The translations under genes were made by a program, and so were the position numbers. Below are positions 9,419-32,048 of a stretch of 64,000 nucleotides of DNA, one piece after another. Position 1 is the first letter of the stretch; every line of letters starts with the position of its first letter. A model generated the notes under the pieces. That model was given only the letters and a program-made list of their open reading frames with translations. It did not search any database and had not been told where the DNA came from. The stretch is taken from positions 672,001 through 736,000 of the forward strand of contig OZ252251.1 in the NCBI GenBank assembly GCA_965249725.1, written 5' to 3'. The DNA comes from Longimicrobiales bacterium (GTDB taxonomy: Bacteria; Gemmatimonadota; Gemmatimonadetes; Longimicrobiales; Gaopeijiaceae).

Positions 9419-9621
9419 GGCTCCTTCACCTCTCCGGTACTTCGGGTCACTAACGGTACGGGCATCTGTACCTGTGGCACAGAGGTATCCCGGAGCCGTG
9501 GGTGAGAACCGGGACCCAGGGCATTGCAGGATCATTCGTCCCCGTAGTATGTCCCATGGGTCGGACGCTCGCCCGCCCCGGGCCTGAGACCGTTGGATTC
9601 CAAGTCGGCAAAGGAACGACC

Positions 9622-10959: not shown

Positions 10960-12306
10960 ATGTCGTACCCCCGAACCACCATCCTGGGCGCCGTTGCGGC
11001 CTTGGTTGCCTTCGCCGTCTTCGCCCCTACGCCCTCTGAGGCGCAGTGGAATGCGCTGGAGCGCGGAAGCGACAACATCGAAGTCCTCGGACATCTGCCC
11101 CTCGGCCCCGCGCTCAACGTCGCCGATATGGACGTCGAGCAGGAGCTGTCCCGTCCCTACGCCTACGTGGCTCGCATGGTCTACGCAGGCCAGGGGGTCA
11201 TGGGCATGGACGTCATCAGCATTGAAGATCCGTCGCAACCCGAGCTGCTCTACGAGTGGCGCATCGAGGAGCAGGACCTGCACCTCGGTCGAGGCGGCAT
11301 GGACGTCAAGCACTTCAAGTGGAATGATCGCTACTACGTGATCCAGTCCACCCAATTCGGGCAGGGTGGCCCGGATTCGGACATGGGCGGCGTCGTTCTC
11401 GACGTGACCGGTCTACCCGATGCATCGACGGTTCGTGAGGTCGCGCGAATCAGAGAGCCTCTCATGCCGGGTGGCTTCCACAACATCTTCGTCTACAAGC
11501 ACTCCGACGGGCGGGTGTTGTTGTTCGCAACAGTTTCAGGCGCCTTCGCGCAGGTTTACGACCTGGGCAAGCTGGTTGAAGGCGCCTCGTCCGAAGAGGC
11601 ACGCGCCGGCCGGGTCCCCAACCCCAGCTCGGACGAAGGAGGTGGACGGGGATATCACGACTTCTACGTCGGCTACCATCCAGACACCGATCAGGATCGG
11701 TTCTACGGCGGTGGCGGTGGTGGGTACTACATCTACAACGTCAGCGACCTTGAGGAGCCCGAGCTGGTGGTCACGCTCACGGGCGTCAGCGGTGTCGGTG
11801 GCGGCCACACGTTCACGCCTGGCCCGAACGGTCGCTACGTGGTGGCGGAGACGGAGTACGAGTTCGCACCGCTCAGAATCTTCGACCTGGAGCCTGCCCT
11901 GGAAGGGGAGGCCACGAACATCCGCCGACCCATCTCGGGTTGGACGGCCGACTACAAAAACTTGACCCACAATCACGAGATCCGGTGGCCGTTGGTCTTC
12001 GTGTCCGGCTATCTGGATGGTCTCCAGGTGTTCAGCCTCCAGGATCCGTACAATCCGGTCACGGTGGGCTACTACGACACCTACATCGGTCCGCGGTCCA
12101 CCGAGACCACCCCCGTATTCAACGGCGCATTCGGAATCGACGTCCGGAATGCGGACGGGCTGATCACGATCAGCGACATGAGCACCGGATTCTGGACGTT
12201 CCGCATGGATGGCTTCCAGGGCTGGAACGGAGCGCAGTGGGGCGTGCCGGACATCTCCAGCGCTCAGAAGTGGGATGAGCCCCTGAGGCGTCCCATCAGC
12301 CAGTAG
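10960..12306 (+). CDS. Secreted LVIVD-repeat beta-propeller, array copy 1
   Basis: RBS GAGG, signal peptide, FHNIF/YHDFY/GHTFT/HNHE motifs, C-terminal KWDEPLRRPIS. Confidence 0.85.
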   Translation: MSYPRTTILGAVAALVAFAVFAPTPSEAQWNALERGSDNIEVLGHLPLGPALNVADMDVEQELSRPYAYVARMVYAGQGVMGMDVISIEDPSQPELLYEWRIEEQDLHLGRGGMDVKHFKWNDRYYVIQSTQFGQGGPDSDMGGVVLDVTGLPDASTVREVARIREPLMPGGFHNIFVYKHSDGRVLLFATVSGAFAQVYDLGKLVEGASSEEARAGRVPNPSSDEGGGRGYHDFYVGYHPDTDQDRFYGGGGGGYYIYNVSDLEEPELVVTLTGVSGVGGGHTFTPGPNGRYVVAETEYEFAPLRIFDLEPALEGEATNIRRPISGWTADYKNLTHNHEIRWPLVFVSGYLDGLQVFSLQDPYNPVTVGYYDTYIGPRSTETTPVFNGAFGIDVRNADGLITISDMSTGFWTFRMDGFQGWNGAQWGVPDISSAQKWDEPLRRPISQ

Positions 12307-12357
12307 CGATAGCTGCAGGCCGCGTAACACCGCCGACCCTCTCCACGGAGTTGATGC

Positions 12358-13791
12358 ATGTCTGTTTCAGGTGGCCTCTCAGGTGTTCGCGTAGTCGGAC
12401 GCGGCCTTCGCCTTGCCGTTCACCTTGCGTGTACGCTGGCATGTACGCTGGCATGTGTGATGACAGTGCTCGGGACGCCCCGTGCCTCCGCGCAGGAGTG
12501 GACCGCCCTCGATCGGGGCAGTGAAAACATCGACGTGCTGGGCCACCTGCCGTTGGGCGGCCCGCTCAACGTGGGCGACATGGACGTGGAGCCGGAGGTT
12601 TCCCGCCCCTTCGCGTACGTCGGCCGCATGCGCTACGGCACGCCGGGACCCACGGGCATGGACATCATCAGCATCGAGGACCCGGACCGGCCCACGCTCC
12701 TCTACGAGTGGCGCATCGAGGATCAGGAGCTGCACACGGGACTCGGAGGCATGGACGTGAAGACGTTCAAGCTCGACGGGCGCTACTACGTGGTGCAGTC
12801 CCTTCAGTACGGCCAGGGCGGACCGGACTTCGACCTCGGTGCCGTGGTCTTCGACGTCACGGGTCTCCCCGACGCGTCGACCGTTCGTGAGGTGGCGCGG
12901 ATCCGTGAGCCGCTCCTACCTGGGGGCTTCCACAACATCTTCATCTACAAGCACTCCGACGGTCGGGCGCTCCTGTTCACGACGGTGAACGGCCCATCGG
13001 CGCACATCTACGACCTTGCGCGTGTCGTCGCGGGCGCCAGCGCGGAGGATGCACTAGTGGGTCGTGTGCCGATCCCGGATGCCGGCGGCGAGACCAGTCC
13101 CATCGGCGGCTATCACGACTTTTACGTCGGGTATCATCCCGATACGGACGAGGATCGCTTCTACGGTGGAGGTGCAGGCGGATACTTCATCTACGACGTG
13201 ACTGATCCGGCAGAGCCGGAGCTTCGGATCACGCTTACCGGCATTCGGGGCGTGCCGTTTGGGCACACCTTCACGCCCAGCCCGGACGGTCGCTACGTGA
13301 TCGCCGAGACAGAGTACGAGTTCGCTCCGCTGCGCATCTTCGATCTGCAGCCCGCCCTCGATGGCCAGACGACCAACATCAACCGCCCGATCGCAGGGTG
13401 GACGTCGGATTACCGGTATGTGGCCCACAACCACGAGGTTCGGTGGCCGTTGGTTTTTGTGTCCGGATACCTGGACGGCCTGCAGGTCTTCAACCTGCAG
13501 GACCCGACCGACCCGGTGACGGTGGGCTACTACGACACGTATATCGGGCCGCGAGCCACACTGAATCCAGACGGGGTCATGGGCGACTATGCCACCAGCC
13601 TTTTCAATGGGGCCTTCGGAGTGGATGTGCGGAACGAAGACGGCCTGATCCTGATCAGCGACTTCTCGACCGGCTTCTGGACGCTCCGCATGGACGGCTT
13701 CCAGGGCTGGAACGGAGAGCAGTGGGGCGTGCCGGATATCTCGAGCGAACAGAAATGGGACGAGCCGGTACGGCGGCCCATAAGCGAATAG
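12358..13791 (+). CDS. Secreted LVIVD-repeat beta-propeller, array copy 2
   Basis: Paralogue of copy 1 over its full length. Confidence 0.85.
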   Translation: MSVSGGLSGVRVVGRGLRLAVHLACTLACTLACVMTVLGTPRASAQEWTALDRGSENIDVLGHLPLGGPLNVGDMDVEPEVSRPFAYVGRMRYGTPGPTGMDIISIEDPDRPTLLYEWRIEDQELHTGLGGMDVKTFKLDGRYYVVQSLQYGQGGPDFDLGAVVFDVTGLPDASTVREVARIREPLLPGGFHNIFIYKHSDGRALLFTTVNGPSAHIYDLARVVAGASAEDALVGRVPIPDAGGETSPIGGYHDFYVGYHPDTDEDRFYGGGAGGYFIYDVTDPAEPELRITLTGIRGVPFGHTFTPSPDGRYVIAETEYEFAPLRIFDLQPALDGQTTNINRPIAGWTSDYRYVAHNHEVRWPLVFVSGYLDGLQVFNLQDPTDPVTVGYYDTYIGPRATLNPDGVMGDYATSLFNGAFGVDVRNEDGLILISDFSTGFWTLRMDGFQGWNGEQWGVPDISSEQKWDEPVRRPISE

Positions 13792-13819
13792 AATCTCAAC
13801 CCTAGCGGGAGCAGTAGAT

Positions 13820-15163
13820 ATGTCATCGTTCCGGTCCTGTGTAGTCGGCCTGGCCACGCTCGCCCTGATGGCGATCGTCGTGCCGGGGGCTTCGGCCCAG
13901 TGGACGGCCCTCAAGCGTGGTAGCGACAACATCGAGGTCGTCGCGCACCTCCCCCTCGGAGGTCGCGTCAGCGCAGCGGACACGGACATCGAGCAGGAGC
14001 TTGACAGGCCCTACGCCTACGTGGGGCGGATCTCTAACGGCGGCGGCGGCAAGGGCGTTGACGTCATTGATCTGTCAGACCCAGCGCACCCGGAGGTTCT
14101 CTACGAGTGGCGGATCGAAGATCCGGAGCTGCACCTCGGGTTGGGTGGCATGGACGTGAAGTACTTCAAGGTGGACGGCCGCTACTACGTGGTGCAGTCA
14201 CTCCAGTTCGGCCAGGGTGGTCCCGACTCCGACCTGGCTGCGGTGGTACTCGACGTGACTGATCTGCCCGATCCGTCCACGGTGCGTGAGGTGGCACGGA
14301 TGAGGGAGCCGCTTCTGCCGGGCGGCTTCCACAACATCTTCGTCTACAAGCACTCCGACGGGCGGGTGTTGTTGTTCTCCACGGTCAGCGGGCCCTTCGC
14401 CAACGTGTACGACCTGGGCATGATCGTGCAGGGCGCGGACATGGAGAGCGCGCTGGCGGGCCGGGTGCCCGTGCCGCAGGCCGCCCAAGGTGGCCAAGCG
14501 GGTGGGGGTTACCACGACTTCTACGTGGGCTATCACCCCGACACGGACGAGGATCGCTTCTACGGGGGCGGCACCGGAGGGTATTACGTCTACGACGTCA
14601 CCGACACGGAGGACCCCCAGCTCCGGATCAGCCTCACCGGTGCCCGAGGTGTAGCGCGGGGACACACCTTCACGCCCAGCCCTGACGGGCGATATGTGGT
14701 AGCCGAGACGGAGTATCAGTTCGCGCCGCTCCGTATCTTCGATCTGAAGCCCGCGCTCGACGGTGAGGTGACCAATATCAACCGGCCCATTGCGGGGTGG
14801 ACGGCCGACTTCAACAACCTCTCCCACAATCACGAAGTTCGCTGGCCGTTCGTGATCGTGTCGAGCTACCTGGACGGGATCCAGATCTTCAACCTGCAGG
14901 ACCCCACCAATCCGGTCACGGTGGGCTACTACGACACCTACATCGGGCCGCGCTTCACGGAGGATCTCAACCCGATCCTCAATGGCACGTTCGGCGTGGG
15001 CGTGCGCAACGCGGACGGGCTCATCATCGGGAGCGACTCCAGCACCGGATTCTGGGTCCTACGCATGGACGGCTTCCAGGGGTGGAACGGCGAGCAGTGG
15101 GGCATGCCGGACATCTCGAGCGCGCAGAAATGGGATGAGCCGGTCCGGAGGCCGATCAGCTGA
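13820..15163 (+). CDS. Secreted LVIVD-repeat beta-propeller, array copy 3
   Basis: Paralogue; same motifs. Confidence 0.85.
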   Translation: MSSFRSCVVGLATLALMAIVVPGASAQWTALKRGSDNIEVVAHLPLGGRVSAADTDIEQELDRPYAYVGRISNGGGGKGVDVIDLSDPAHPEVLYEWRIEDPELHLGLGGMDVKYFKVDGRYYVVQSLQFGQGGPDSDLAAVVLDVTDLPDPSTVREVARMREPLLPGGFHNIFVYKHSDGRVLLFSTVSGPFANVYDLGMIVQGADMESALAGRVPVPQAAQGGQAGGGYHDFYVGYHPDTDEDRFYGGGTGGYYVYDVTDTEDPQLRISLTGARGVARGHTFTPSPDGRYVVAETEYQFAPLRIFDLKPALDGEVTNINRPIAGWTADFNNLSHNHEVRWPFVIVSSYLDGIQIFNLQDPTNPVTVGYYDTYIGPRFTEDLNPILNGTFGVGVRNADGLIIGSDSSTGFWVLRMDGFQGWNGEQWGMPDISSAQKWDEPVRRPIS

Positions 15164-15180
15164 CTAACGGAGGATTACCG

Positions 15181-16518
15181 ATGTTGTTCAGAACACGCGC
15201 AGTCGCCGTATTCGCGGCGGCCGCCGCTGTCCTCATGGTCGCGGTCGGGTCCGCGTCGGCTCAGTGGACGCCACTGAAGCGAGGAAGCGACAACATCGAC
15301 GTGCTGGGGCATCTGCCGCTCGGAGGGCTGCACAGCGCCACCGACACCGACATTGAGCAGGAGCTCTCGAGACCCTACGCGTATGTCGGACGGAGCGTCA
15401 TCGGGCGGGGCGAGGGCCGGGGTGTCGATATCATCGACCTCTCCGACCCGGAGCGGCCGGGGCTGCTCTACTCGTGGCGGATAGAGGACGACGACGTCCA
15501 CATCGGGAGCGGCGGCATGGACGTGAAGCACTTCAAGGTCGATGGCCGCTACTACGTGGTGCAGTCACTCCAGTTCAGTCAGGGCGGGCCCGACGCGGAT
15601 ATGGGCGCGGTGGTGCTCGACGTGACAGGGCTGCCGGATCCATCGACCGTTCGCGAGGTAGCCCGGATCCGTGAACCCCTCCTGCCGGGCGGGTTCCACA
15701 ACATCTTCGTCTACCAGCACTCGGATGGGAGAGTGCTCCTTTTCACCACGGTGCGCGGGCCCAGCGCACACGTGTACGACCTTCGGAAGGTGGTGAACGG
15801 AGCCAGCGCGGAAGAGGCCCTTGCCGGGCGCGTGCCGGTTCCCGTGACCGGAGACACGCCGGGTAGTTATCACGACTTCTACGTGGGCTACCATCCCGAC
15901 ACGGATCAGGATCGCTTCTACGGCGGGGGCACGGGCGGCTACTACGTCTATAACGTCACCGACCCCGCTGACCCCGAGCTCGTCATAACGCTCACGGGGG
16001 TCCGAGGCGTTTCGTACGGGCACACGTTCACTCCCAGCCCTGACGGCCGCTACGCGGTGGCCGAGACGGAGTACCAGTTCGCCCCCCTCCGAATCTTCGA
16101 CCTGCAGCCGGCCCTGGACGGAGAGGCCGCCAATATCAACCGCCCGATCGCGGGCTGGACGGCCGACTACCGGAACCTGGTGCACAACCACGAGGTGCGC
16201 TGGCCGCTGGTGTTCGTATCCGGATACTTGGATGGCCTTCAGATCTTCAATCTGCAGGACCCCACGAATCCGGTGACCGTGGGCTACTACGACACCTATA
16301 TCGGGCCGCCGAGCCCGGTGCTGAACCCCGTATTCGGTGGGACCTTCGGCGTGGACGTGAGGAACGCGGACGGGCTCATCATCGTCAACGACTCGGGCAC
16401 GGGCTTCTGGACCTTCCGGATGGAAGGCTTCCAGGGATGGAACGGCGAGCAGTGGGGCATGCCGGACATCTCCAGTGCGCAGAAGTGGGACGAGCCGGTG
16501 CGGAGGCCCATAAGCTAA
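15181..16518 (+). CDS. Secreted LVIVD-repeat beta-propeller, array copy 4
   Basis: Paralogue; GGAGG RBS. Confidence 0.85.
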   Translation: MLFRTRAVAVFAAAAAVLMVAVGSASAQWTPLKRGSDNIDVLGHLPLGGLHSATDTDIEQELSRPYAYVGRSVIGRGEGRGVDIIDLSDPERPGLLYSWRIEDDDVHIGSGGMDVKHFKVDGRYYVVQSLQFSQGGPDADMGAVVLDVTGLPDPSTVREVARIREPLLPGGFHNIFVYQHSDGRVLLFTTVRGPSAHVYDLRKVVNGASAEEALAGRVPVPVTGDTPGSYHDFYVGYHPDTDQDRFYGGGTGGYYVYNVTDPADPELVITLTGVRGVSYGHTFTPSPDGRYAVAETEYQFAPLRIFDLQPALDGEAANINRPIAGWTADYRNLVHNHEVRWPLVFVSGYLDGLQIFNLQDPTNPVTVGYYDTYIGPPSPVLNPVFGGTFGVDVRNADGLIIVNDSGTGFWTFRMEGFQGWNGEQWGMPDISSAQKWDEPVRRPIS

Positions 16519-16616
16519 CGTGGCGCGGTTTTTTTTCGTCCCCTAGCTTGTCGAGCACGCAGAATCGATCCGTGCCGGACCGCACGGCGCTCAATCCATA
16601 GCAGGAGCACTCTCCA

Positions 16617-17957
16617 ATGCCACGCCCACGAACCGCCGTTCTCTGTGCCGTCGTTCTGGCGCTTCTCACACTACTGCCGGTCTCCGCGGTCGCCCAGGCG
16701 ACTGCACTGAATCGCGGAAGCGACAACATCGATGTTCTCGGGCACTTGCCGCTGGGCCCCGCCCTGAGCGTGTTGGACATGGATGTGGAGCAGGAGTTGT
16801 CCAGGCCGTATGCCTACGTGGCACGTGGTCGACTCGGGCCGGCTGGGCCGCGCGGGATGGACATCATCAGCATCGAGGATCCTGACCGCCCCGAGCTCCT
16901 GCACGAGTGGCGGATCGAGGATCAGGACCTGCATGTCGGGCCGGGTGGCATGGACGTGAAGTACTTCAAGGTGAACGGCCGTTACTACGTCGTGCAGTCG
17001 GTCCAGTTCGGGCAGGGAGGGCCGAACGCCGATGTCGGTGCCGTGGTTTTGGACGTGACGGGTCTCCCGGATCCGTCCACCGTGCGTGAGGTGGCCCGTA
17101 TCAGTGAGCCCCTCTCGCCTGGTGGCTTCCACAACATCTTCGTCTACAAGCACTCCGATGGTCGTGTGCTGCTTTTCGCGACGATCAACGGCCCGTATGC
17201 CCACATGTACGATCTGGGGATGGTCGTGTCAGGGGCCACTTCCGAGCAGGCGTTGGCCGGCAAGGTGCCCATCGCGAACGACGGCAATACGCCGGTCATC
17301 GTGGGCTACCACGACTTCTACGTCGGGTATCATCCGGACACGGATGAGGACCGCTTCTACGGTGGTGGTGGCGGTGGCTACTACGTCTACGACGTGAGCG
17401 ACCCGTCGTCGCCCGAGCTCCGCATCACGTTGACGGGAATCAGCGGAGTACCGTTCGGTCACACCTTCACCCCGAGCCCCGATGGACGGTATGTCGTTGC
17501 CGAGACGGAGTACGGCTTCGCGCCGCTCAGGTTCTTCGATCTGAAGCCGGCGCTGGACGGCGAGACCATGAACATTCGCCGGCCCATCTCGGGCTGGACA
17601 CCGAACTACAAGAACGTGGTCCACAACCACGAGGTGCGCTGGCCTTGGCTGTTCGTCTCGGGCTATCACGAGGGGCTACAGGTCGTGAACCTGCAGGACC
17701 CCACGGATCCGCAGACCGTGGGCTACTACGACACCTACATCGGACCCCACACCGAAGTGATCAACCCGATCTTCAATGGTGCGTTCGGGATCGACGTGCG
17801 GAACGAGGACGGCCTGATCCTGATCAGTGACATGAGCACCGGGTTCTGGACCTTCCGCATGGATGGATTCCAGGGTTGGAACGGTGAGCAGTGGGGCCAG
17901 CCGGATATCTCCAGTGTGCAGAAATGGGATGAGCCGGTGCGCAGGCCCATCAGCTAG
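16617..17957 (+). CDS. Secreted LVIVD-repeat beta-propeller, array copy 5
   Basis: Paralogue; AGGAG RBS. Confidence 0.85.
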   Translation: MPRPRTAVLCAVVLALLTLLPVSAVAQATALNRGSDNIDVLGHLPLGPALSVLDMDVEQELSRPYAYVARGRLGPAGPRGMDIISIEDPDRPELLHEWRIEDQDLHVGPGGMDVKYFKVNGRYYVVQSVQFGQGGPNADVGAVVLDVTGLPDPSTVREVARISEPLSPGGFHNIFVYKHSDGRVLLFATINGPYAHMYDLGMVVSGATSEQALAGKVPIANDGNTPVIVGYHDFYVGYHPDTDEDRFYGGGGGGYYVYDVSDPSSPELRITLTGISGVPFGHTFTPSPDGRYVVAETEYGFAPLRFFDLKPALDGETMNIRRPISGWTPNYKNVVHNHEVRWPWLFVSGYHEGLQVVNLQDPTDPQTVGYYDTYIGPHTEVINPIFNGAFGIDVRNEDGLILISDMSTGFWTFRMDGFQGWNGEQWGQPDISSVQKWDEPVRRPIS

Positions 17958-17994
17958 GAACAGAGTGTTGTCCATTCCAAAAGGAGGACCGTCC

Positions 17995-19329
17995 ATGTCG
18001 AACCGTCATCCACGCTATGCGGCCGCGGTTTCGACCGTATTCGCACTTCTCGTGCTCGTTGCAGCTCCCGTGTCCGGGCAGTGGACCGCCCTCAACCGGG
18101 GGAGCGACAACATGGAGGTGTTGGGACACCTCCCCCTGGGCCCCTTCCTGAACGTGTCGGACATGGACCTGGAGCAAGAGCTGTCTCGTCCCTACGCGTA
18201 TGTCTCCCGCATGGTATGGGGAGAGGGCGGTGCCAAGGGCATGGACATCGTCAGCCTCGAGGACCCTTCGCATCCCGAACTCATCTACGAGTGGCGGATC
18301 GAAGAACAGGATCTACACGTAGGGACCGGCGGCATGGACGTGAAGTACTTCAAGATTGCCGATCGTTACTACGTGGTGCAGTCGTTTCAATTCGGTCAGG
18401 GCGGTCCCGATTCGGACATGGGTGCGGTGGTCTTGGACGTGACGGGTCTCCCGGATCCATCAGCGGTTCGGGAGGTGGCCCGCATCCGAGAGCCGCTCCT
18501 GCCGGGTGGCTTCCACAACATCTTCGTCTATAAGCACTCCGACGGCCGGGTGCTGCTGTTCACGACCGTTTCCGGGCCCTACTCCCACGTCTACGATCTT
18601 GAGCGTGTGGTCGCCGGCGACATGGAAAATGCGCTGGTGGGTCGTGTGCCCGGTCCCGACCGCGAAGGTGGCGGTTCGGCCTATCACGACATCTACGTGG
18701 GCTACCATCCGGACACCGACCAGGACCGGTTCTACGGGGGCGGGACAGGTGGTTACTACATCTATGACGTCACGGACGTCGAGGCCCCCTCACTCGAAAT
18801 CAGTTTGACGGGGATCAGCGGGGTGGGCCGTGGTCACACGTTCACGCCGAGTCCCGACGGGCGCTACGCTGTGGCCGAGGTCGAGTACCAGTTCGCTCCC
18901 CTTCGGATCTTCGATCTACAGCCGGCCTTGGACGGTGAGACCACGAACATCCGTCGCCCCATCGCGGGCTGGACGGCGGACTACCAGAACCTGGTGCACA
19001 ATCACGAGGTTCGGTGGCCTTATGTGTTCGCTTCGTCGTACCTGGACGGACTCACGGTCTTCAACCTCCAGGATCCGTCCAATCCGGTGACGGTCGGCTA
19101 TTACGACACATATCTCGGAAAGCCGGGGCCCCGAAGCACCATTGTGGGTGGGGCGTTCGGCGTGGACATCCGCAATGAGGACGGCCTGATCGTCGTGAGC
19201 GACATGAACACGGGCCTGTGGACCTTCCGCATGGACGGTTTCCAGGGGTGGAGCGGCGACCAGTGGGGCGTGCCGGACATCTCGAGCGCCCAGAAGTGGG
19301 ACGAACCTCTGCGCAGACCGATCAGCTAA
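17995..19329 (+). CDS. Secreted LVIVD-repeat beta-propeller, array copy 6
   Basis: Paralogue; AAGGAGG RBS before ATG 17995. Confidence 0.85.
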   Translation: MSNRHPRYAAAVSTVFALLVLVAAPVSGQWTALNRGSDNMEVLGHLPLGPFLNVSDMDLEQELSRPYAYVSRMVWGEGGAKGMDIVSLEDPSHPELIYEWRIEEQDLHVGTGGMDVKYFKIADRYYVVQSFQFGQGGPDSDMGAVVLDVTGLPDPSAVREVARIREPLLPGGFHNIFVYKHSDGRVLLFTTVSGPYSHVYDLERVVAGDMENALVGRVPGPDREGGGSAYHDIYVGYHPDTDQDRFYGGGTGGYYIYDVTDVEAPSLEISLTGISGVGRGHTFTPSPDGRYAVAEVEYQFAPLRIFDLQPALDGETTNIRRPIAGWTADYQNLVHNHEVRWPYVFASSYLDGLTVFNLQDPSNPVTVGYYDTYLGKPGPRSTIVGGAFGVDIRNEDGLIVVSDMNTGLWTFRMDGFQGWSGDQWGVPDISSAQKWDEPLRRPIS

Positions 19330-19401
19330 CCATCACCCCATAGACATGCCCTCAACCCACTAGACATGCACGAATTCAACCTTCAGCGGGAGAAGCACTC
19401 A

Positions 19402-20739
19402 ATGTCGTTTTCCAGGTCGGCCGTTCTGAGCACGGCCCTCATCTTCGCCCTGATGGCCTGGGCGGCTCCCGCCTCGGCGCAGTGGACAGCCATGAACCGC
19501 GGCAGCGAGAACATCGAGGTGCTGGGGCACCTGCCTCTCGGTGCCCACCTGAACGTGTCCGACATGGATGTCGAGCAGGAGCTGTCTCGCCCGTACGCCT
19601 ATGTGTCCCGCATGGTCTGGGGACCCACGGGCACCAAGGGCATGGACATCGTCAGCATCGAAGACCCAGCCAACCCGGAGCGCATCTACGAATATCGGAT
19701 CGACGATCCGGACCTCCATCTCGGTACGGGGGGCATGGACGTGAAGCACTTCAAAATCGGCGACCGCTACTACGTGTTGCAGTCGTTCCAGTTCGGGCAA
19801 GGTGGTCCGGATTCCGAGCTGGGTGGGGTCGTGCTCGACGTGACGGGTCTCCCGGACGTATCGACCGTGCGTGAGGTAGGCGAGATCCGCGAGCCCCTGA
19901 TGCCCGGCGGCTTCCACAACATTTTCGTCTACAAGCACTCCGACGGTCGCGTCCTACTTTTCACGACCGTTAATGGACCCTACGCCCACATCTACGATCT
20001 GGCCGAGGTCGTGGATGGAGCCGACGCTGAAGACGCACTCGTGGGCCGCGTGCCAGTCGGTGCGGCCGAGGGTACCGGCGGAGGCTACCATGACATATAC
20101 GTTGCGTACCACCCCGACAGCGATCAGGACCGCTTCTACGGTGGCGGGACCGGTGGGTACTTCGTCTACGACGTGTCGGATCCCAGCAGCCCCTCGTTGG
20201 AGATCACCCTGGTGGGGATCCGTGGCATCACATACGGACACACCTTCACGCCGAGCCCCGATGGTCGGTACGCGGTAGCCGAGGTCGAGTATCGGTATGC
20301 GCCTCTGAGGATCTTCGACCTCAAGCCGGCGTTGGACGGTGAAACCACCAACATCAACCGGCCCGTATCGGGTTGGACCGCCGACTACCAGAACCTGGTG
20401 CACAACCACGAGGTGCGGTGGCCTCTCGTGTTCGCTTCGTCGTACCTCGACGGGCTGACCATCTTCAACCTCCAGGATCCGTCGAATCCGCAGACGGTGG
20501 GCTACTACGACACCTACATCGGCAAGCGCACACAGGATCGGTGCCCGGAGTGCAATGGCGCGTTCGGGGTCGACGTCCGGAATGCGGACGGTCTGATCCT
20601 CATCAGCGACATGAGCACGGGGCTTTGGACGTTCAAGATGGAGGGCTTCAACGGCTGGAATGGTGAGCAGTGGGGCATGCCCGACATCTCCAGCGCCCAG
20701 AAGTGGGACGAGCCGGTGCGCAGGCCCATTAGCCAGTAG
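19402..20739 (+). CDS. Secreted LVIVD-repeat beta-propeller, array copy 7 (CPEC loop)
   Basis: Paralogue; start ATG 19402. Confidence 0.85.
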   Translation: MSFSRSAVLSTALIFALMAWAAPASAQWTAMNRGSENIEVLGHLPLGAHLNVSDMDVEQELSRPYAYVSRMVWGPTGTKGMDIVSIEDPANPERIYEYRIDDPDLHLGTGGMDVKHFKIGDRYYVLQSFQFGQGGPDSELGGVVLDVTGLPDVSTVREVGEIREPLMPGGFHNIFVYKHSDGRVLLFTTVNGPYAHIYDLAEVVDGADAEDALVGRVPVGAAEGTGGGYHDIYVAYHPDSDQDRFYGGGTGGYFVYDVSDPSSPSLEITLVGIRGITYGHTFTPSPDGRYAVAEVEYRYAPLRIFDLKPALDGETTNINRPVSGWTADYQNLVHNHEVRWPLVFASSYLDGLTIFNLQDPSNPQTVGYYDTYIGKRTQDRCPECNGAFGVDVRNADGLILISDMSTGLWTFKMEGFNGWNGEQWGMPDISSAQKWDEPVRRPISQ

Positions 20740-20804
20740 CGCCAGTCAAACGTCGGAACGCGACGGTCACGTTGCTCGGCTCCCCCGGACACGGCACCTG
20801 TGTT

Positions 20805-20833
20805 GCCCCGGGGGGAGTGCGGGAACCCACCCG
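20805..20833 (+). repeat. Direct repeat, left copy (CCGGGGGAGTGCGGG-ACCCACCC)
   Basis: Near-identical to 22629-22656; the pair brackets the inserted inverted gene. Confidence 0.75.
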
Positions 20834-20954
20834 TTATACGCAACGGCAGGTAGACTCTGGGTTGATAGGTAACAGGAGGTTACGGGGTGAACGGCGGCCT
20901 AGGGCGCGGCAAACGAACCTGCGACGGACTGATGGAGCTACGCCAAGTCGAGCG

Positions 20955-22409
20955 TTAGAGCCCGTAGATCAGGCGAGCGTTCTCGAGCCCGATGAGCCGA
21001 GCGAGGTCCGGGGGGAGGGCCTGCAGCAAGGCCTCGAACGGCTCCATGTGTGCGTCGATGAGGTCGGGGTTGGCGTAGAAGGTGTCGGAGCCCAGAACGA
21101 AGCGGTCGGGGAAGGCCGTGAAGAGTGCAAGCCACTCCGGTCGCAGCGCACCTCCTTCGTCGAGCGGCGCGTGCTCGGGAAAGAGCGGCACGATGGCGTC
21201 ACTATATATGAGGACCTGGAGGAAGAGGTTGGGGTGAGCCTCGAGCAGGGTGCCAAGCAGCTCCACGGTCATGTCGCCGGTGTTGTCCCAGCCGACATGG
21301 GCCCACACGATGCGCGTCTCCTGATTGTGCGAAAGGAGTCGCTCCAGTGCGTCGACGTTGGCACGTAGGGAGGCCGGGTTCAGGGCGCTGCGCTGCAAGA
21401 AGACTGGGGGTGTAGGCTTCTCGGTCACCACCGCCTCCATGTGAAGGTCGATGGGAACGCCGTACTGCGCGGCCAGGTCCGCCGCGAGAAGGAAGGCGGC
21501 ATGATCGGGCGGCATCTCGAGGAATGGGTGCTCGGGCCGAAAGGAGAGGTGTAGCGCAGTGAGCTCACCTAAGACGACCGAGCCGCTGGTGGAGAGCTGC
21601 GCCGCCGCGGCTACCAAAGCGTCTGAAAGTTCGGACGTGAGGCCGTCTACCTGGCTCTGGTGAAGAAGCGGGTTGAGCGAGAAGCCGCCAGCGGCGAAGG
21701 CGAAGCGGTCAGACCGGCTGGTGATGGCCGCTGATAGCGCGCTTTCGAAGGCGTTGGCTGCTACGGGTGAAGGAGGTGGCATCATCACCGCCTGCACGAC
21801 GTGGTGCACATCTTGGCGAGCGACGGCTCGGTCCAGGCAGGCAGGATCGAAGCAGCTGACCATCTCACCCGGCCCAAAAGTGGGGTGCGTGTGCGTGTCG
21901 ATCCATGTCGCCGCGGGGGCGGGGGCTACCATCGTGGCTACTGCCGTTCCGCTTCGTCCCTCGCTCGAGGCCGTGAGGGTGCTCACGCCAGGTCCGACGG
22001 CTGTGACGAGCCCGCTGGCACTAACGGTCGCGGCACCTTGGCTCGAGCTGGACCAGGTGACCGTTCGACCGGAAAGCACATTCCCGCCTGCGTCCGTCAC
22101 GGTGGCCGTGAATTGCGCCGTTTGACCGATTTCGAGCGTAATCGAACTCGGAGAGACCGCTACCGAGGCGACAGGCACGGGGAGGGTAGGCCCCGGCGCA
22201 GTAGGCTGCTCGGAGCTGCCTCCACCCTCACCACCACCGCAAGCTGTTAGTGCCAGTAAGAGGACCAACCAAGTTAGGAACTTCCGATTCTGGCTTTGCT
22301 TAAGATCCTCAGCCAGATGCACCGTGGCCATGCCACCCTCGCCCAACTCACGCTCGATGGCGTAGCGGCCCTCCAAAGCCGAGTTCAGGCGGTCAACTGG
22401 ATCGGACAT
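20955..22409 (-). CDS. Chimeric lipoprotein: Ser/Thr kinase N-terminal remnant + lipobox + Ig-like (Big_2) + amidohydrolase
   Basis: MSDPVDRLNSALEGRYAIERELGEGGMATVHLAEDLK; LALTAC; VTWSSS..ATVSASGLVTAV; IDTHTH, PIDLH, WAHVG, VLGSD. Confidence 0.8.
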   Translation of the reverse strand: MSDPVDRLNSALEGRYAIERELGEGGMATVHLAEDLKQSQNRKFLTWLVLLLALTACGGGEGGGSSEQPTAPGPTLPVPVASVAVSPSSITLEIGQTAQFTATVTDAGGNVLSGRTVTWSSSSQGAATVSASGLVTAVGPGVSTLTASSEGRSGTAVATMVAPAPAATWIDTHTHPTFGPGEMVSCFDPACLDRAVARQDVHHVVQAVMMPPPSPVAANAFESALSAAITSRSDRFAFAAGGFSLNPLLHQSQVDGLTSELSDALVAAAAQLSTSGSVVLGELTALHLSFRPEHPFLEMPPDHAAFLLAADLAAQYGVPIDLHMEAVVTEKPTPPVFLQRSALNPASLRANVDALERLLSHNQETRIVWAHVGWDNTGDMTVELLGTLLEAHPNLFLQVLIYSDAIVPLFPEHAPLDEGGALRPEWLALFTAFPDRFVLGSDTFYANPDLIDAHMEPFEALLQALPPDLARLIGLENARLIYGL

Positions 22410-22494
22410 GGGCACTCCCCGGACTAGACCGTTGTGAATGTCCGGGTTCGGGGAGCGCAAGCAGAACGACGTTGAAGGCCGACTCAGCAAGGTC

Positions 22495-22628
22495 GCCTAA
22501 CAAGCTGGTTTGCACGAACTCGCATGCGCTCGTTCGCCCTTCGGGTAACGCGCCGCTGGTCACTGCGCTTGCCTTCGCAAGCTCGTGGCCTGTCTCGCGG
22601 CGCGCTCGCGAACCAGACTCCGTTCGCC
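22495..22628 (+). mobile_element. attC-like (integron cassette recombination) site, degenerate
   Basis: GCCTAAC...GTTCGCC ends, CTGGTTTGC/GCGAACCAG L boxes, nested stems GCGCCGC/GCGGCGC, GGTCAC/GTGGCC, GCTTGC-CTTC-GCAAGC; 134 bp. Confidence 0.6.
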
Positions 22629-22656
22629 GCCCGGGGGAGTGCGGGCACCCACCCCG
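22629..22656 (+). repeat. Direct repeat, right copy
   Basis: Matches 20805-20833. Confidence 0.75.
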
Positions 22657-22805
22657 ACGTTCTCCGAATCGTTCCCCCTCGGACCGCTGCCCGGGCCCGC
22701 CCCGTTGGCGGGTTTTTCGACGGCCCCGTAGGTTGTGGGCCACGCTTGTTTCAACAGGACGCGCCGCTCAGCCTGGCGCATCGACTTCAGCGGGAGGCAC
22801 CGCTC

Positions 22806-24155
22806 ATGCTCTACACTCGGCCAACCCTCATAGCGACGGCGTTCGCCCTCGCGGCGTTGATCGCCACGGCCGTGGCTCCCGTTTCGGCCCAGTGGACTCC
22901 GTTGAGCCGCGGGAGTGACAACATCGAGGTGCTCGGGCACCTCCCTGTGGGTCCCGCTCTCAGCGTCTCGGACATGGATGTGGAGCAGGAGCTGTCCCGT
23001 CCCTACGCTTACATGAGCCGCATGGCCTATGGCGGCGAAGGGCCCATGGGCCTCGACATCATCAGCATCGAGGACCCGGGGAATCCGCAGATCCTCTACG
23101 AATGGCGGATCGCCGACCGCGACCTCCACTCGGGTAACGGGGGGATGGACGTGAAGTACTTCAAGGTGAACGGCCGCTATTACGTGGTGCAGTCGACACA
23201 GTTCGGCCAGGGTGGTCCGGACTCGGACATGGGCGCCGTAGTGCTCGACGTCACGGGTCTGCCCGATCCGTCCACCGTGCGTGAGGTCGCCAGGCTCCGT
23301 GAGCCGCTGCTGCCCGGCGGCTTCCACAACATCTTCGTCTACAAGCACTCGGATGGCCGAGTGCTGCTGTTCGCCACCGTCAGTGGGCCGTTCGCCAACG
23401 TGTATGACCTGGGCAAGGTGGTTCAGGGGGCATCCGCCGAGGAGGCGCTCGCCGGACAGGTTCCCAACCCGCAATCTCAGGCCGCCGGCGGCGGACGAGG
23501 GTACCACGACTTCTACGTCGCCTACCATCCGGATACCGATGAGGACCGCTTCTACGGAGGTGGCGGTGGCGGGTACTACATCATCGACGTCTCCGATCTG
23601 TCGGATCCACAGGTCCGCATCACGCTGACGGGCGTCCGCGGAGTGGGCGGGGGCCACACGTTCACCCCGAGCTCCGACGGCCGCTACGTCGTCGCCGAGA
23701 CAGAGTATCAGTTCGCGCCCCTCCGGTTGTTCGACCTCAAGCCTGCTCTCGATGGAGAGGTCACCAACATCAACCGCCCGATCTCGGGCTGGACCGCGGA
23801 CTGGAACAACCTGGTCCACAATCACGAGGTCCGTTGGCCCTACGTGTTCGTGACCGGTTATCTGGACGGACTCCAGGTCTTCAACATGCAGGACCCCGCG
23901 AATCCGCAGACGGTTGCCTATTACGACACGTACATCGGAGTTCGCGATCCCGAGCGTTGCCAGGAGTGCAACGGTGCGTTCGGGGTCGACGTTCGCAACG
24001 CCGACGGACTCATCGTGATCAGCGACATGAGCACTGGCCTGTGGACGTTTCGCATGGACGGCTTCCAAGGTTGGAACGGAGAGCAGTGGGGGATGCCCGA
24101 CATCTCCAGCGCTCAGAAGTGGGATGAGTCGGTACGGCGGCCGATTAGTGATTAG
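22806..24155 (+). CDS. Secreted LVIVD-repeat beta-propeller, array copy 8 (CQEC loop)
   Basis: Paralogue; GGAGG RBS before ATG 22806. Confidence 0.85.
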   Translation: MLYTRPTLIATAFALAALIATAVAPVSAQWTPLSRGSDNIEVLGHLPVGPALSVSDMDVEQELSRPYAYMSRMAYGGEGPMGLDIISIEDPGNPQILYEWRIADRDLHSGNGGMDVKYFKVNGRYYVVQSTQFGQGGPDSDMGAVVLDVTGLPDPSTVREVARLREPLLPGGFHNIFVYKHSDGRVLLFATVSGPFANVYDLGKVVQGASAEEALAGQVPNPQSQAAGGGRGYHDFYVAYHPDTDEDRFYGGGGGGYYIIDVSDLSDPQVRITLTGVRGVGGGHTFTPSSDGRYVVAETEYQFAPLRLFDLKPALDGEVTNINRPISGWTADWNNLVHNHEVRWPYVFVTGYLDGLQVFNMQDPANPQTVAYYDTYIGVRDPERCQECNGAFGVDVRNADGLIVISDMSTGLWTFRMDGFQGWNGEQWGMPDISSAQKWDESVRRPISD

Positions 24156-24231
24156 CCGAAGCCGCTCCTCTATCGAGCACTCGTCCATAAAGATATATCA
24201 CAGAAGCACTTACAGCAGGAGCACACGGTTC

Positions 24232-25581
24232 ATGTCACACCATCGGTCAAGTACGGTAGCGACGGCTTTTGCCGTCGTAGCTCTCGTCGCACTCGCCGCG
24301 GCGCCGGTCTCTGCGCAGTGGACCGCCATGAAGCGCGGTAGCGACAACATCGAGGTCATCGGCCACCTGCCGCTGGGGCCGGCCTTGAGTGTTTCCGATA
24401 TGGATGTGGAGCAGGAGTTGTCCCGTCCGTATGCCTATGTGTCGCGAATGCTCTACGGTGTCACCGGCCCCAAGGGCATGGACATCATCAGCATCGAAGA
24501 CCCGGCCAACCCCGAGATCATCTACGAGTGGCGGATCGAAGAGCAGGATCTTCATCTGGGCCGAGGCGGCATGGATGCCAAGCACTTCAAGATCGGCAAC
24601 CGCTACTACGTGGTTCAGTCCACGCAGTTCGGCCAGGGCGGCCCCAATTCAGACATGGGCGCCGTGGTCCTTGATGTGACCGGACTGCCGGACCCGGCCA
24701 CGGTCCGAGAGGTCAACCGAATCCGGGAGCCTCTGCGTCCCGGTGGCTTCCACAACATCTTCATCTACAAGCACTCTGATGGCCGAGTACTTCTGTTCGC
24801 GACGGCGGCCGGGCGGGTCGCCTTGATCTACGACCTCGCTCTGGTGGTGGATGGTGCGGACGCCGAAGCGGCCCTCGTCGGGGAGGTTCCGATCCCCAAT
24901 CAACCCGAGGGCCAGGACAACAGGAGTTATCACGACTTCTACGTCGGCTACCATCCGGACACCGATCAGGACCGGTTCTACGGGGGTGCCGGGGGCGGCT
25001 ACTACATCTATGACGTGACGGATCCGGCGAATCCCAACCTCGAAATCACCCTTACGGGGATTCGCGGGGTGGAGTGGGGTCACACATTCACGCCCAGCCC
25101 GGACGGTCGCTACGTGGTGGCCGAGGCCGAGTACCAGTTCGCACCGCTCCGTATCTTCGACCTGAAGCCGGCTCTGGACGGCCAGACGACCAACATCAAC
25201 CGCCCGATCTCAGGCTGGACGGCGGACTACGACAACCTGGTGCACAACCACGAGATCCGGTGGCCCTGGATGTTCGTGACGGGCTATGTGGACGGCCTTC
25301 AGGTCGTAAACCTCCAGGATCCGACGAACCCCGTGACAGTCGGCTACTACGACACGTACCTCGGTGTCAAAGACCCGACCCGGTGCCAGGAGTGTAACGG
25401 GTCCTTCGGAATCGACGTCCGCAACGAAGACGGACTCATCGTCATGAGCGACATGAGCACCGGCCTCTGGACTTTCCGCATGGACGGCTTCCAGGGTTGG
25501 AGCGGTGAGCAGTGGGGTATGCCGGACCTGTCGAGTGCCCAGAAGTGGGACGAGCCGGTGCGGAGGCCGATCAGTCAGTAG
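24232..25581 (+). CDS. Secreted LVIVD-repeat beta-propeller, array copy 9 (CQEC loop)
   Basis: Paralogue; start ATG 24232. Confidence 0.85.
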   Translation: MSHHRSSTVATAFAVVALVALAAAPVSAQWTAMKRGSDNIEVIGHLPLGPALSVSDMDVEQELSRPYAYVSRMLYGVTGPKGMDIISIEDPANPEIIYEWRIEEQDLHLGRGGMDAKHFKIGNRYYVVQSTQFGQGGPNSDMGAVVLDVTGLPDPATVREVNRIREPLRPGGFHNIFIYKHSDGRVLLFATAAGRVALIYDLALVVDGADAEAALVGEVPIPNQPEGQDNRSYHDFYVGYHPDTDQDRFYGGAGGGYYIYDVTDPANPNLEITLTGIRGVEWGHTFTPSPDGRYVVAEAEYQFAPLRIFDLKPALDGQTTNINRPISGWTADYDNLVHNHEIRWPWMFVTGYVDGLQVVNLQDPTNPVTVGYYDTYLGVKDPTRCQECNGSFGIDVRNEDGLIVMSDMSTGLWTFRMDGFQGWSGEQWGMPDLSSAQKWDEPVRRPISQ

Positions 25582-25714
25582 GAAACTCAACAAATCATGC
25601 ACGCCGGCTGTCTATATATACTGGCGAGGTTCCTGACGCCTTGGTAGATTACGTGGACGTCGGCGACAGCGCTGATCGTACGTGGCAAATCATCTAAAGT
25701 TGGAGAGATCGCCC

Positions 25715-27064
25715 ATGCAACGCTCCCGGACCGGCATCCTCGCGGCTGCCATCCTTACAGTTCTCGCTACCAGCATGCCCGCTGATGCGTCTGCGCAAGA
25801 GATGAACGCGCTCACGCGTGGCAGTGACAATATCGAGGTGCTAGGGCATCTCCCCCTCGGACCCGCCCTAAACACGTCGGACATGGACGTTGAGCAGGAG
25901 ATGTCCCGTCCTTATGCCTACGTCGGTCGGATGGCATACGGTGGCGTTGGCGTGAAGGGCATGGACATCATCAGCATCGAGGATCCGTCGAATCCGGAGA
26001 TTCTGTACGAGTGGCGCATCGAGGACCAGGATCTCCACCTGGGCCTGGGCGGGATGGACGTGAAGCACTTCAAGTGGAACGACCGCTACTACGTGGTGCA
26101 GTCGCTCCAGTTTGGTCAGGGTGGACCGGACGCGGACCTCGGCGCGGTAGTGCTCGACGTCACAGGTCTTCCCGATCCGTCCACGGTGCGTGAGGTCGCG
26201 CGAATCCATGAGCCGCTGATGCCGGGTGGTTTCCACAACATCTTTATCTATAAGCACTCGAGTGGTCGGGTGCTGCTCTTCACGACCATCGGAGGACCCT
26301 TTGCTCAGATCTATGACCTGGGCACGCTCGTCGAGGGTGGCTCCACTGAGGATGCGCGGGCCGGCCGGGTGCCGAACCCGCAGTCCCAAGAGACCGGCGG
26401 TAACGGCGGGTACCACGACTTCTACGTCGGATACCATCCGGACACCGATGAAGACCGCTTCTACGGCGGCGGGCGCGGTGGTTACTACATCATCGACGTT
26501 ACGGATCTTTCGGATCCGCAGGTTCGCATCACCCTGACGGGCGTCAGCGGAGTGGGCGGTGGTCACACGTTCACGCCGAGCCCCGACGGCCGGTACGTGG
26601 TTGCCGAGACCGAGTACGAGTTCGCTCCGCTCCGGTTCTTCGACCTGCAGCCGGCGCTGGACGGCGAAACGACCAACATTCGTCGGCCCATCTCCGGCTG
26701 GACATCGAACTACAAGAACCTCGTGCACAACCACGAGGTCCGTTGGCCCTGGCTGTTCGTCTCGGGCTACCTGGACGGACTCCAAGTCGTGAACCTCCAG
26801 GATCCGACCAATCCGCAGACCGTGGGGTATTACGACACTTACATCGGTGCGCGCCGCGCGGATCGTACGCCCGTGTTCAACGGCGCGTTCGGGATAGACG
26901 TGAGAAACGCGGATGGGCTAATATTGATCAGTGATATGAGCACGGGGTTCTGGACCTTCCGAATGGACGGCTTCCAGGGCTGGAACGGCGAGCAGTGGGG
27001 AGTCCCCGACATCTCCAGCGCTCAGAAGTGGGATGAGCCCGTGCGTCGTCCAATAAGCGAGTAG
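25715..27064 (+). CDS. Secreted LVIVD-repeat beta-propeller, array copy 10
   Basis: Paralogue; start ATG 25715. Confidence 0.85.
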   Translation: MQRSRTGILAAAILTVLATSMPADASAQEMNALTRGSDNIEVLGHLPLGPALNTSDMDVEQEMSRPYAYVGRMAYGGVGVKGMDIISIEDPSNPEILYEWRIEDQDLHLGLGGMDVKHFKWNDRYYVVQSLQFGQGGPDADLGAVVLDVTGLPDPSTVREVARIHEPLMPGGFHNIFIYKHSSGRVLLFTTIGGPFAQIYDLGTLVEGGSTEDARAGRVPNPQSQETGGNGGYHDFYVGYHPDTDEDRFYGGGRGGYYIIDVTDLSDPQVRITLTGVSGVGGGHTFTPSPDGRYVVAETEYEFAPLRFFDLQPALDGETTNIRRPISGWTSNYKNLVHNHEVRWPWLFVSGYLDGLQVVNLQDPTNPQTVGYYDTYIGARRADRTPVFNGAFGIDVRNADGLILISDMSTGFWTFRMDGFQGWNGEQWGVPDISSAQKWDEPVRRPISE

Positions 27065-27067: not shown

Positions 27068-27613
27068 ATGAACATCTTTATTCCGATTGCGGTGGCGGTG
27101 CTGGGTGTAGGGCCCAACGGGGCTCAGGCGGCCCCGGCCATGTGTTTCGCCGCCGACAACCAGCCTCCCGTCTTCTATCGGGTGGAGCTCATCACCACGA
27201 AGCGAGTCCCGGGGTCGGGAATGGCGACCGGCGCGGGCGAGATCACGTTCACGCCCTCTCCGTTCGCGGTGAACCTCACGCCTGAGGGTGATTACCTGCG
27301 TGACGTGAACATCACCGTGAACGGTCTCAAGCCGGCTGCGAGCGGCAACTACGTCGCTTGGGTGACGACCCCCGCATTGGACCGCACCACGCGGCTCGGC
27401 GTGCTTGATGCCGACGGAACCGCCAGCGGACAGATCGCCTTCAACAAGTTCCTCCTCGTGATCTCTCTCGAGGAAGACGACGGCTCGTCCTCGGAGCGTT
27501 GGAAGGGACCCATCGCGCTGAGGGGCATGTCCCGGAGTGGGGCAATGCACACCTCTGCGGGGCACGGACCCTTCGTGGTCGAGAACTGCACGGGGTACGG
27601 CTTCAACGGGTAA
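27068..27613 (+). CDS. Secreted hypothetical protein (RskA C-terminal-like beta-sandwich pattern; MHxxxxH tail)
   Basis: 3 bp after copy 10; signal-like N-terminus; GLKP..YVAW..LGVL..FLLVISLE..GPIAL pattern. Confidence 0.65.
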   Translation: MNIFIPIAVAVLGVGPNGAQAAPAMCFAADNQPPVFYRVELITTKRVPGSGMATGAGEITFTPSPFAVNLTPEGDYLRDVNITVNGLKPAASGNYVAWVTTPALDRTTRLGVLDADGTASGQIAFNKFLLVISLEEDDGSSSERWKGPIALRGMSRSGAMHTSAGHGPFVVENCTGYGFNG

Positions 27614-27634
27614 GGAGTCAGCCCGTTCACAACG

Positions 27635-27676
27635 ACATCCCCGTCGGTCTCGGTCATCCGTGGCCGACGGGGATGT
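27635..27676 (+). terminator. Stem-loop, probable intrinsic terminator or processing hairpin
   Basis: ACATCCCCGTCGG / CCGACGGGGATGT 13-bp inverted repeat followed by TTCGCTTT. Confidence 0.6.
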
Positions 27677-27701
27677 TTCGCTTTCAACCGAAGTGATACG
27701 C

Positions 27702-31903: not shown

Positions 31904-32048
31904 GTCTCGCACTCCTCGTAGGGATGGGGTCTAAATCTCGAAAAGCGGGAGGGATGACGCCATGGGTCTGTACGACATCTTCTTGCTCCTCGCCACTGCG
32001 GTTGGCACCTTACTTGCCGATCGTCTCTCATATCAGGAAACGAACCAC

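Follow-up and report, generated by a model that had tools for sequence, protein, structure and literature searches.

We analysed a window of 64,000 nucleotides (nt) from a Longimicrobiales bacterium (assembly GCA_965249725.1, contig OZ252251.1, positions 672,001 to 736,000 of the forward strand; coordinates below are those of the window). Positions 10960-27064 hold ten intact paralogs in tandem on the plus strand, named c1 to c10 in order (Table 1). The encoded proteins are 444-477 amino acids (aa) long, typically about 445 aa, and each gene has a GGAG-like site ahead of its likely ATG. Every copy begins with a hydrophobic signal peptide with an Ala-x-Ala-type site at its end, and about 422 aa remain in the mature protein. 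A ten-copy profile matched each copy end to end (positions 1-423; 849-884 bits) and had no other match within the window. The array is interrupted once, between c7 and c8, by an unrelated minus-strand gene; at the corresponding site of a related array, L001, this gene is missing and the gap is just 297 bp. Long antisense open reading frames (ORFs) that overlap the array genes were taken to be frame shadows of the 63% G+C sequence. The copies share 71-82% identity as proteins (mean 75%) and 71-78% as DNA (mean 73.5%). The proportion of synonymous differences (pS) among them is 0.60, equivalent to a synonymous distance (dS) of about 1.25, and they are therefore old duplicates. We found no recent gene conversion among the copies; the highest identity over 90 nt was 0.90, in conserved stretches.

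The original prediction for this locus held that variation among the copies is concentrated in a few loops resembling complementarity-determining regions (CDRs). To describe the variation, we aligned the ten mature proteins (434 columns) and called a column hypervariable if it had four or more states. By this definition, 201 of the 434 columns were invariant and 64 were hypervariable. Column entropy was autocorrelated at lags 1-3 (0.24, 0.20 and 0.22; reached by 0 of 5000 permutations), and no autocorrelation was found at lag 5, where 994 of 5000 permutations reached the observed value. The densest 10-column window contained 7 hypervariable columns, which 113 of 5000 permutations equalled. The autocorrelation and the dense window together indicate that the variation is truly clustered in short segments. 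The loops that had been named were recovered in the alignment, including all ten variants of loop A, eight distinct residue pairs within the HxGxGG motif (two of them occurring twice), the ten pairs preceding GHT, the variable length of the segment before YHD, and the 9-19 aa of the loop after YDTY(I/L)G. The claim of clustering thus stood, although variable columns also occur beyond these five loops.

An AlphaFold model of c10, based on a 52-sequence alignment, had a predicted local distance difference test score (pLDDT) of 92.4 and a predicted template modelling score (pTM) of 0.92. It contains 28 strands, arranged as seven four-stranded blades, and supports the assignment of the array proteins as seven-bladed beta-propellers. 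Foldseek ranked first the two chains of 5hrm, a phosphotriesterase from Sphingobium (E 2.4e-11 and 1.2e-10, template modelling (TM) scores 0.59-0.63, 14% identity). At least 500 matches were obtained at E<=0.001, and the listed ones after 5hrm were generic seven-bladed WD40 proteins. By sequence, 5hrm/5ioj was the sole PDB family matched (E 0.005 with one copy and 2.1e-5 with the profile).

Family models placed the proteins less sharply. In the three window copies tested, Pfam gave no match at E<=0.01; at E<=10 the LVIVD repeat PF08309 scored 11.6-14.9 bits in all three, under its gathering cut-off of 20.2 bits. An 87%-identical cluster representative, P0001, bears a precomputed PF08309 label, and membership of the array family in PF08309 appears borderline. 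The NCBIfam choice-of-anchor B model TIGR04312 matched the same three copies weakly over the full length (38.2, 42.2 and 47.2 bits), below its cut-off of 100. Homologs were numerous, with at least 2678 at E<=0.001 among 8000 candidates scored and 3239 clusters at 50% identity. Those with names are called 'hypothetical' or 'LVIVD repeat-containing' (e.g. P0064) and come from Gemmatimonadota/Longimicrobiales. A collection of one genome per species gave at least 639 matched stretches, 602 of those listed being in this family, and the ESM Atlas returned only clusters of the same kind, labelled LVIVD or hypothetical. From these matches, the array proteins are best read as an uncharacterised, distantly LVIVD-like family of propellers, presumably secreted or periplasmic.

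In propeller topology, the 'top' face is formed by the loops that join strand D to A (D>A) and B to C (B>C), and the bottom face by those that join A to B (A>B) and C to D (C>D). We assigned blades from the strand list of the model, taking each LVIVD-like motif to mark a C-D hairpin and letting the N-terminal strand close blade 7. All five named loops were top loops by this blade topology (1B>1C in the case of loop A, D>A in the other four), in agreement with the earlier proposal that they line one face. When per-column entropy was mapped to the blade classes of the predicted structure, top loops (119 columns) had a mean entropy of 0.89 and 35 hypervariable columns, compared with 0.52 and 11 in bottom loops (89 columns) and 0.47 and 15 in strands (181 columns); the termini (45 columns) had 3. 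The mapping therefore went partly as predicted, with 35 of the 64 hypervariable columns on top and 29 elsewhere. Top and bottom loops differed both in hypervariable columns (Fisher p=0.0039) and in entropy (Mann-Whitney p=3.4e-4). On the modelled fold, the top-face bias of the variation is real, not exclusive.

A ring of invariant residues lies where the D>A loops end and the inner strands begin. In the numbering of the c10 mature protein it consists of H82, H148-N149, H208-D209, H258, H312-N313-H314-E315, D30/D32, D89 and D369, and its six His (H82, H148, H208, H258, H312 and H314) stand at the inner-strand starts of blades 2-6. The ring was identical in 10/10 copies and in 15 relatives of the same clade, with the change of D369 to G in c3 and its ortholog L001_2 as the sole departure. 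The six His were identical in 23/23 close homologs, and together with most of the acidic and Asn positions they were identical in 59/59 single-copy homologs, D32 being the exception (49 D, 10 E). Ring residues were also kept in 18-20 of 20 copies from Rhodothermales/Bacteroidota (at D32, 15 D and 5 E). Among distant homologs (n=19, 26-49% identity), just 3-6 kept the six His; N13, D221, Y224, R371 and Q411 are universal scaffold residues, distant homologs included. The loss of the six His in distant homologs indicates a subfamily-specific functional signature and not a requirement of the fold. Judged by this conservation, the ring would mark a functional site that is particular to the subfamily and lies at the central-channel mouth, and by analogy with other propeller enzymes it may bind a metal or serve as a catalytic hub site. 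As to the proposed diversified pocket around a fixed metal site, the invariant ring and the same-face divergence are borne out by topology and comparative evidence, and the metal is an inference.

To compare the array with its relatives, we scanned one genome per species and fetched 79 loci with 10-kb flanks; the copy counts below apply inside these loci. One propeller copy was present in 66 of the 79. The close Longimicrobiales arrays L001 and L002 had 6 and 4 copies, both bounded upstream by non-family ORFs, and loci of Rhodothermales/Bacteroidota had 2-7. The window copies grouped into one clade with L001, L002 and five single-copy loci in a 104-sequence tree. Copies c1, c3, c6, c8, c9 and c10 were one-to-one orthologs of L001_1-6, in the same order; c1, c6, c9 and c10 paired with L002_1-4, and c7 with L011. 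Seven of the ten copies thus have orthologs in related genomes, and c2, c4 and c5 had none in the fetched DNA.

The loops of individual copies were largely retained in these orthologs. Loop A of c7 and of c8 was identical to that of the respective ortholog, and the C-x-E-C loop of c7-c9 was kept. Comparing 7 independent ortholog pairs with 45 paralog pairs, loop A was 77% identical between orthologs and 36% between paralogs, with corresponding values of 82% and 38% for the 6D>7A loop, 90% and 40% for the 7D>1A loop, and 95% and 60% for the 5D>6A loop. The bottom C>D loops (71-73% and 52-57%), the pre-YHD segment (59% and 27%) and the pre-GHT segment (50% and 14%) behave, in these alignments, like generally fast-evolving positions.

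Single-copy homologs showed the reverse of the array pattern. Across the 59 of them, the entropy of top loops (0.58) was slightly lower than that of bottom loops (0.65), compared with 0.94 on top and 0.52 on the bottom in the array, and the excess of paralog over ortholog entropy was larger on top than on the bottom (Mann-Whitney p=7.5e-8). We identified 17 'switch' positions that are near-invariant in the 59 species and variable in the array; 10 were in top loops and 7 in strands, and none was among 39 equally conserved bottom-loop positions. They include Y49 in loop A, the residue that follows H82-x-G and the residue pair ahead of Y207-H208. Seven of the 17 lay within 4 residues of a ring residue (p=0.007). 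The top/bottom divergence ratio was 1.70 in the window, 1.47 in L001, 1.58 in L002, 1.33 in L079 and 1.37 in L073, compared with 0.87 and 0.64 in two sets of single-copy orthologs. As L079 and L073 represent a separate Bacteroidota expansion, the top-face pattern arose at least twice. The comparisons support, at the level of sequence, a decisive contrast in which the top face is conserved in single-copy orthologs and diversified in paralogs.

We then considered selection. Among the ten copies, a selection test was uninformative because synonymous sites are saturated (pS 0.60, with many undefined distances); the ratio of non-synonymous to synonymous differences (pN/pS) in the loops was 0.77 in this saturated comparison. 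Ortholog pairs had dS of 0.6-0.95 and a whole-gene ratio of non-synonymous to synonymous rates (omega) of 0.07-0.12. Pooled over 11 pairs of a window copy and an ortholog, omega was 0.24 in the loops named earlier and 0.077 elsewhere, and 0.12 in top loops and in bottom loops alike. Parsimony counting over 25 sequences found purifying selection at p<0.05 in 257 of 435 sites and a non-synonymous excess at p<0.1 in 0 of 435, so the excess anticipated by the original prediction did not appear. The counting test is, if anything, biased towards finding such an excess, and saturation hides from it any episodic selection right after each duplication. No near-identical template repeat was found among the copies, whose longest exact match to one another, within a conserved stretch, was 54 nt long; no search was made for a reverse transcriptase. 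With ancient copies, loops largely kept in orthologs, a loop omega of 0.24, and bottom loops and strands that also vary, the CDR-like implication was not upheld, and on these sequences the label would overstate the case.

Table 1. Array genes, mapped loops of c10 and neighbouring genes in the window
Feature	Position	Strand	Description
c1	10960..12306	+	448 aa, signal peptide, mature part from 11038; orthologs L001_1 and L002_1
c2	12358..13791	+	477 aa; longest 6D>7A loop (19 aa); no ortholog among fetched loci
c3	13820..15163	+	447 aa; loop A shorter by one residue; ring D369 replaced by G; ortholog L001_2
c4	15181..16518	+	445 aa; sister of c3/L001_2 in the tree
c5	16617..17957	+	446 aa; sister of c2 in the tree
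c6	17995..19329	+	444 aa from likely ATG (listed ORF begins at 17863); orthologs L001_3 and L002_2
c7	19402..20739	+	445 aa; C-P-E-C in 6D>7A loop; ortholog L011_1
Array-splitting gene	20955..22490	-	28-aa kinase-like N-terminal match, Big_2, Amidohydro_2
c8	22806..24155	+	449 aa; C-Q-E-C in 6D>7A loop; ortholog L001_4
c9	24232..25581	+	449 aa; C-Q-E-C in 6D>7A loop; orthologs L001_5 and L002_3
c10	25715..27064	+	449 aa; copy used for the AlphaFold model
c10 loop A (blade 1, B>C, top face)	25934..25957	+	most variable loop, mean entropy 1.77
c10 blade 1>2 D>A loop and start of strand 2A, HxGxGG	26018..26053	+	H82 invariant, x positions variable
c10 blade 3>4 D>A loop before YHD	26375..26410	+	length-variable, mean entropy 1.69
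c10 blade 4>5 D>A loop, ending in xxGHT	26540..26569	+	
c10 blade 6>7 D>A loop after YDTYIG	26834..26884	+	length-variable
Small secreted protein	27068..27613	+	181 aa, begins 4 nt past the end of c10; beta-sandwich, disordered tail
Multicopper-oxidase homolog	27537..29453	+	true start probably later than 27537; Met/His-rich N-terminus
FG-GAP and choice-of-anchor B protein	29468..31912	-	814 aa, TIGR04312 428.9 bits, 2.4 kb downstream of the array

Several further features of the copies were recorded. Codons ~31-70 of c10 (roughly 25880-26000, including loop A) are 81-86% identical in DNA to the c1-type gene of L001, compared with 74-78% to the ortholog of c10 itself, and HFKWNDRY is common to c1 and c10 alone. 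From this likeness, the two end copies of the array may have undergone an old gene-conversion or mosaic event. In c7, c8, c9 and their orthologs, a C-[PQ]-E-C pair lies in the top-face 6D>7A loop, just ahead of blade 7. Single-copy homologs (n=59) do not have this pair in their commonest loop variants, and it may represent an additional disulfide or metal ligand pair. In addition, ten loci of Rhodothermales/Bacteroidota (L006, L036, L040, L041, L046, L049, L057, L064, L073 and L079) have graded propeller sets upstream of the oxidase, with profile scores of ~700, 550 and 200-320; much more divergent paralogs are thus also found there.

Of 80 sources, 64 have a multicopper-oxidase (MCO) homolog beside the propeller, mostly same-stranded and ~550 bp downstream. 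In the window and in 38 loci, a gene for a small protein (~190 aa) separates the oxidase from the last propeller. Copy c10, which adjoins the small gene and the oxidase, has the position that the single copy has in most other genomes. The small protein was modelled as an eight-strand sandwich (pLDDT 78.9), and its disordered tail carries an invariant Met/His motif, with R-G-x-S-R-S-G, H-T, G-H-G and a Cys all invariant in that tail. In a fold search, nothing reached E<=0.001 for this protein; Cu,Zn-SOD, CCS domain II and copper-binding sandwiches of the P19/Tp34 type came closest (E 0.009-0.07, TM 0.26-0.38). These hits are weak and serve as a lead, and Pfam gave just weak RskA_C hits in 7 of 34 members, so that the protein has no assigned family. 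Prediction of a complex of c10 with residues 30-181 of the small protein scored 0.00 in two runs without controls, which is no evidence either way.

The oxidase homolog has three MCO domains, Cu-oxidase_3, Cu-oxidase and Cu-oxidase_2 (E 1.9e-31, 2.3e-19 and 2.5e-23). MCOs hold copper through the ligand motifs HxH, HxH, HxxHxH and HCHxxxH...M. The window protein has RWH (RWHG for HWHG) and NCQ in place of the HWH and HCH found in 55 of 65 aligned neighbours. Three of the eight His positions of the trinuclear cluster (T2/T3) are thereby replaced and the blue-copper (T1) positions are kept, so the ligand set is incomplete. The RWH/NCQ type comprises the window protein and 7 other full-length neighbours (L001, L002, L003, L005, L008, L067 and L076).

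The outer flanks were less regular. The FG-GAP and choice-of-anchor B protein downstream contains a full LVIVD propeller and is distantly related to the array proteins, with synteny in L001, L002 and L005. Other neighbour clusters were heterogeneous and present in at most 12 loci each (Sortilin/BNR, DUF5916, PKD-OmpA, xylose-isomerase-like, DinB, asparaginase and S41 peptidase). Directly upstream of the array, positions 9502-10836 encode a DgaE/SelA-like pyridoxal phosphate (PLP) enzyme that scored 147 bits, short of the cut-off, and bears a twin-arginine-type signal (RRSFL). Neither this enzyme nor the upstream hydrolase was found in L001 or L002. We found no paper on a module of propeller, small protein and MCO.

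Given these results, we consider that the array is an old set of ten isoforms with one chemistry and ten pockets in a copper-linked module, and not an arms-race system; we give this reading a probability of about one half. The ten tandem copies would retain one fixed hub site, metal or catalytic. After duplication, the copies diverged preferentially in loops of the same face, and the loop version of each copy has since been held by purifying selection, which would leave copies with sub- or neo-functionalised specificities for substrates or ligands. The loops may accordingly form a substrate pocket. The propeller would work with the small Met/His-motif protein and the MCO, for which copper or copper-linked redox chemistry is the most likely setting.

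A number of observations weigh against this interpretation. The 'top face' is the canonical topology applied to a strand list and not measured geometry, and with whole loops as units the difference between top and bottom has p=0.055. The 29 hypervariable columns outside the top loops comprise 15 in strands, 11 in bottom loops and 3 in the termini; the bottom loops 3C>3D, 4C>4D and 1C>1D and the tip of the 2A>2B hairpin are also variable. Hypervariable positions overall are not enriched within 4 residues of the ring (9 of 63, p=0.62). The pre-YHD and pre-GHT segments, which diverge between orthologs nearly as expected from elsewhere, may be weakly constrained, and the counting test gave no site with a non-synonymous excess. 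Regarding chemistry, no enzyme family model and no metal-binding family model in Pfam or NCBIfam matches the copies tested, and the sequence alignment to 5hrm/5ioj spans just the LVIVD-type C-D hairpins, which does not reach ligand equivalence. The role of the oxidase is itself uncertain because three trinuclear-cluster His positions are missing in this clade, and gene neighbourhood by itself is no demonstration of physical or mechanistic coupling.

The absence of an enzyme model would also be expected if the copies were non-catalytic binding or scaffold propellers (surface or periplasmic receptors, adhesins or metal-sequestering proteins), with the top face as a partner surface and the ring as a structural element or metal store. 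The top face is the usual ligand face of the WD40-type propellers that fill the Foldseek list after 5hrm, and an attachment or protein-interaction role has been proposed, without tests, for LVIVD proteins in one preprint (bioRxiv 10.1101/2022.05.06.490989). We regard this explanation as doubtful, since the ring is kept in all 59 single-copy homologs (with D or E at D32) yet lost in distant homologs and so looks like an active or metal site, and since the nearest solved fold is an enzyme. Dosage amplification, for example under copper stress, followed by neutral drift in which the loops vary as the least constrained exposed parts, seems somewhat less probable still. It would account for the correlation between paralog and single-copy entropies (Spearman 0.55), for a loop omega below 1, for the drift of the pre-YHD, pre-GHT and bottom C>D segments between orthologs, and for copy numbers of 10, 6 and 4 among relatives. 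Drift does not readily explain why top loops are more conserved than bottom loops in single-copy genes, the opposite of arrays, or why positions invariant in 59 species change in arrays alone and there on top or in strands alone. Furthermore, paralog-specific loops are kept in orthologs, the tested copies are all under strong purifying selection (omega 0.07-0.12), and duplicates of this age argue against a recent amplification.

Continuing diversifying selection, that is, an arms race with truly CDR-like loops, is very improbable and is already largely refuted. It is consistent with the clustering of variation in discrete, partly length-variable loops of one face and with a loop pN near pS among the copies. 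However, the ratio of 0.77 is uninformative under synonymous saturation, the loop omega between orthologs and the counting test both speak against it, several loops are identical between genomes, and the copies contain no template repeat.

If the array is an old set of isoforms, it is a natural experiment that marks specificity-tuning residues, and the 17 switch positions are targets for mutagenesis and loop swaps. The family is large, almost wholly annotated as hypothetical and without a Pfam model of its own, and it now has a fold, a candidate active site and a conserved three-gene context that includes an MCO. If the hub site is a metal centre, it would represent a new metallo-propeller family, one linked to copper chemistry, from marine and soil phyla that have been little studied. 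A more speculative proposal, to which we attach a low likelihood, is that propeller, small protein and oxidase constitute an undescribed and widely conserved periplasmic redox module of Gemmatimonadota and Rhodothermota. In this proposal, the propeller would be a His-ring hub metalloenzyme of a new kind, most likely with copper; the small protein would load it, and it would trade electrons with the blue-copper site of the oxidase, which in this clade, with three of eight trinuclear-cluster His lost, is perhaps reduced to an electron carrier. In some lineages, the propeller would have been multiplied up to ten-fold and its pocket face alone re-tailored to broaden the substrate range.

Known systems resemble parts of this arrangement. 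The Mn-oxidase mnxG operon of Pseudomonas putida GB-1 has a propeller of a different family in single copy and other accessory genes (SCO and SurA). Choice-of-anchor B/LVIVD proteins are matched weakly over the full length by the array proteins, and a true member is encoded close downstream on the opposite strand; the copies differ in missing both cut-offs and in lacking a C-terminal anchor domain. The closest fold relative is the phosphotriesterase/haloalkylphosphorus hydrolase of Sphingobium sp. TCM1 (5hrm and 5ioj), which has seven blades and LVIVD-type C-D hairpins in common with the copies, but shares only 14% identity and is longer (495-591 aa compared with 423 here). Reportedly, the central channel of this enzyme holds a binuclear Mn centre at its top, and we know of no MCO context for it. 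In nitrous oxide reductase (NosZ; the CuZ site) and thiocyanate dehydrogenase, both seven-bladed propellers, the hub copper cluster is bound by several His that successive blades contribute from their inner strands. These two proteins were not among the listed Foldseek matches or the PDB sequence hits, and the copies have no cupredoxin domain, such as the fused CuA domain of NosZ, so the likeness is one of analogy and not of kinship: the six His of the copies likewise stand at inner-strand starts, and copper proteins are encoded alongside them.

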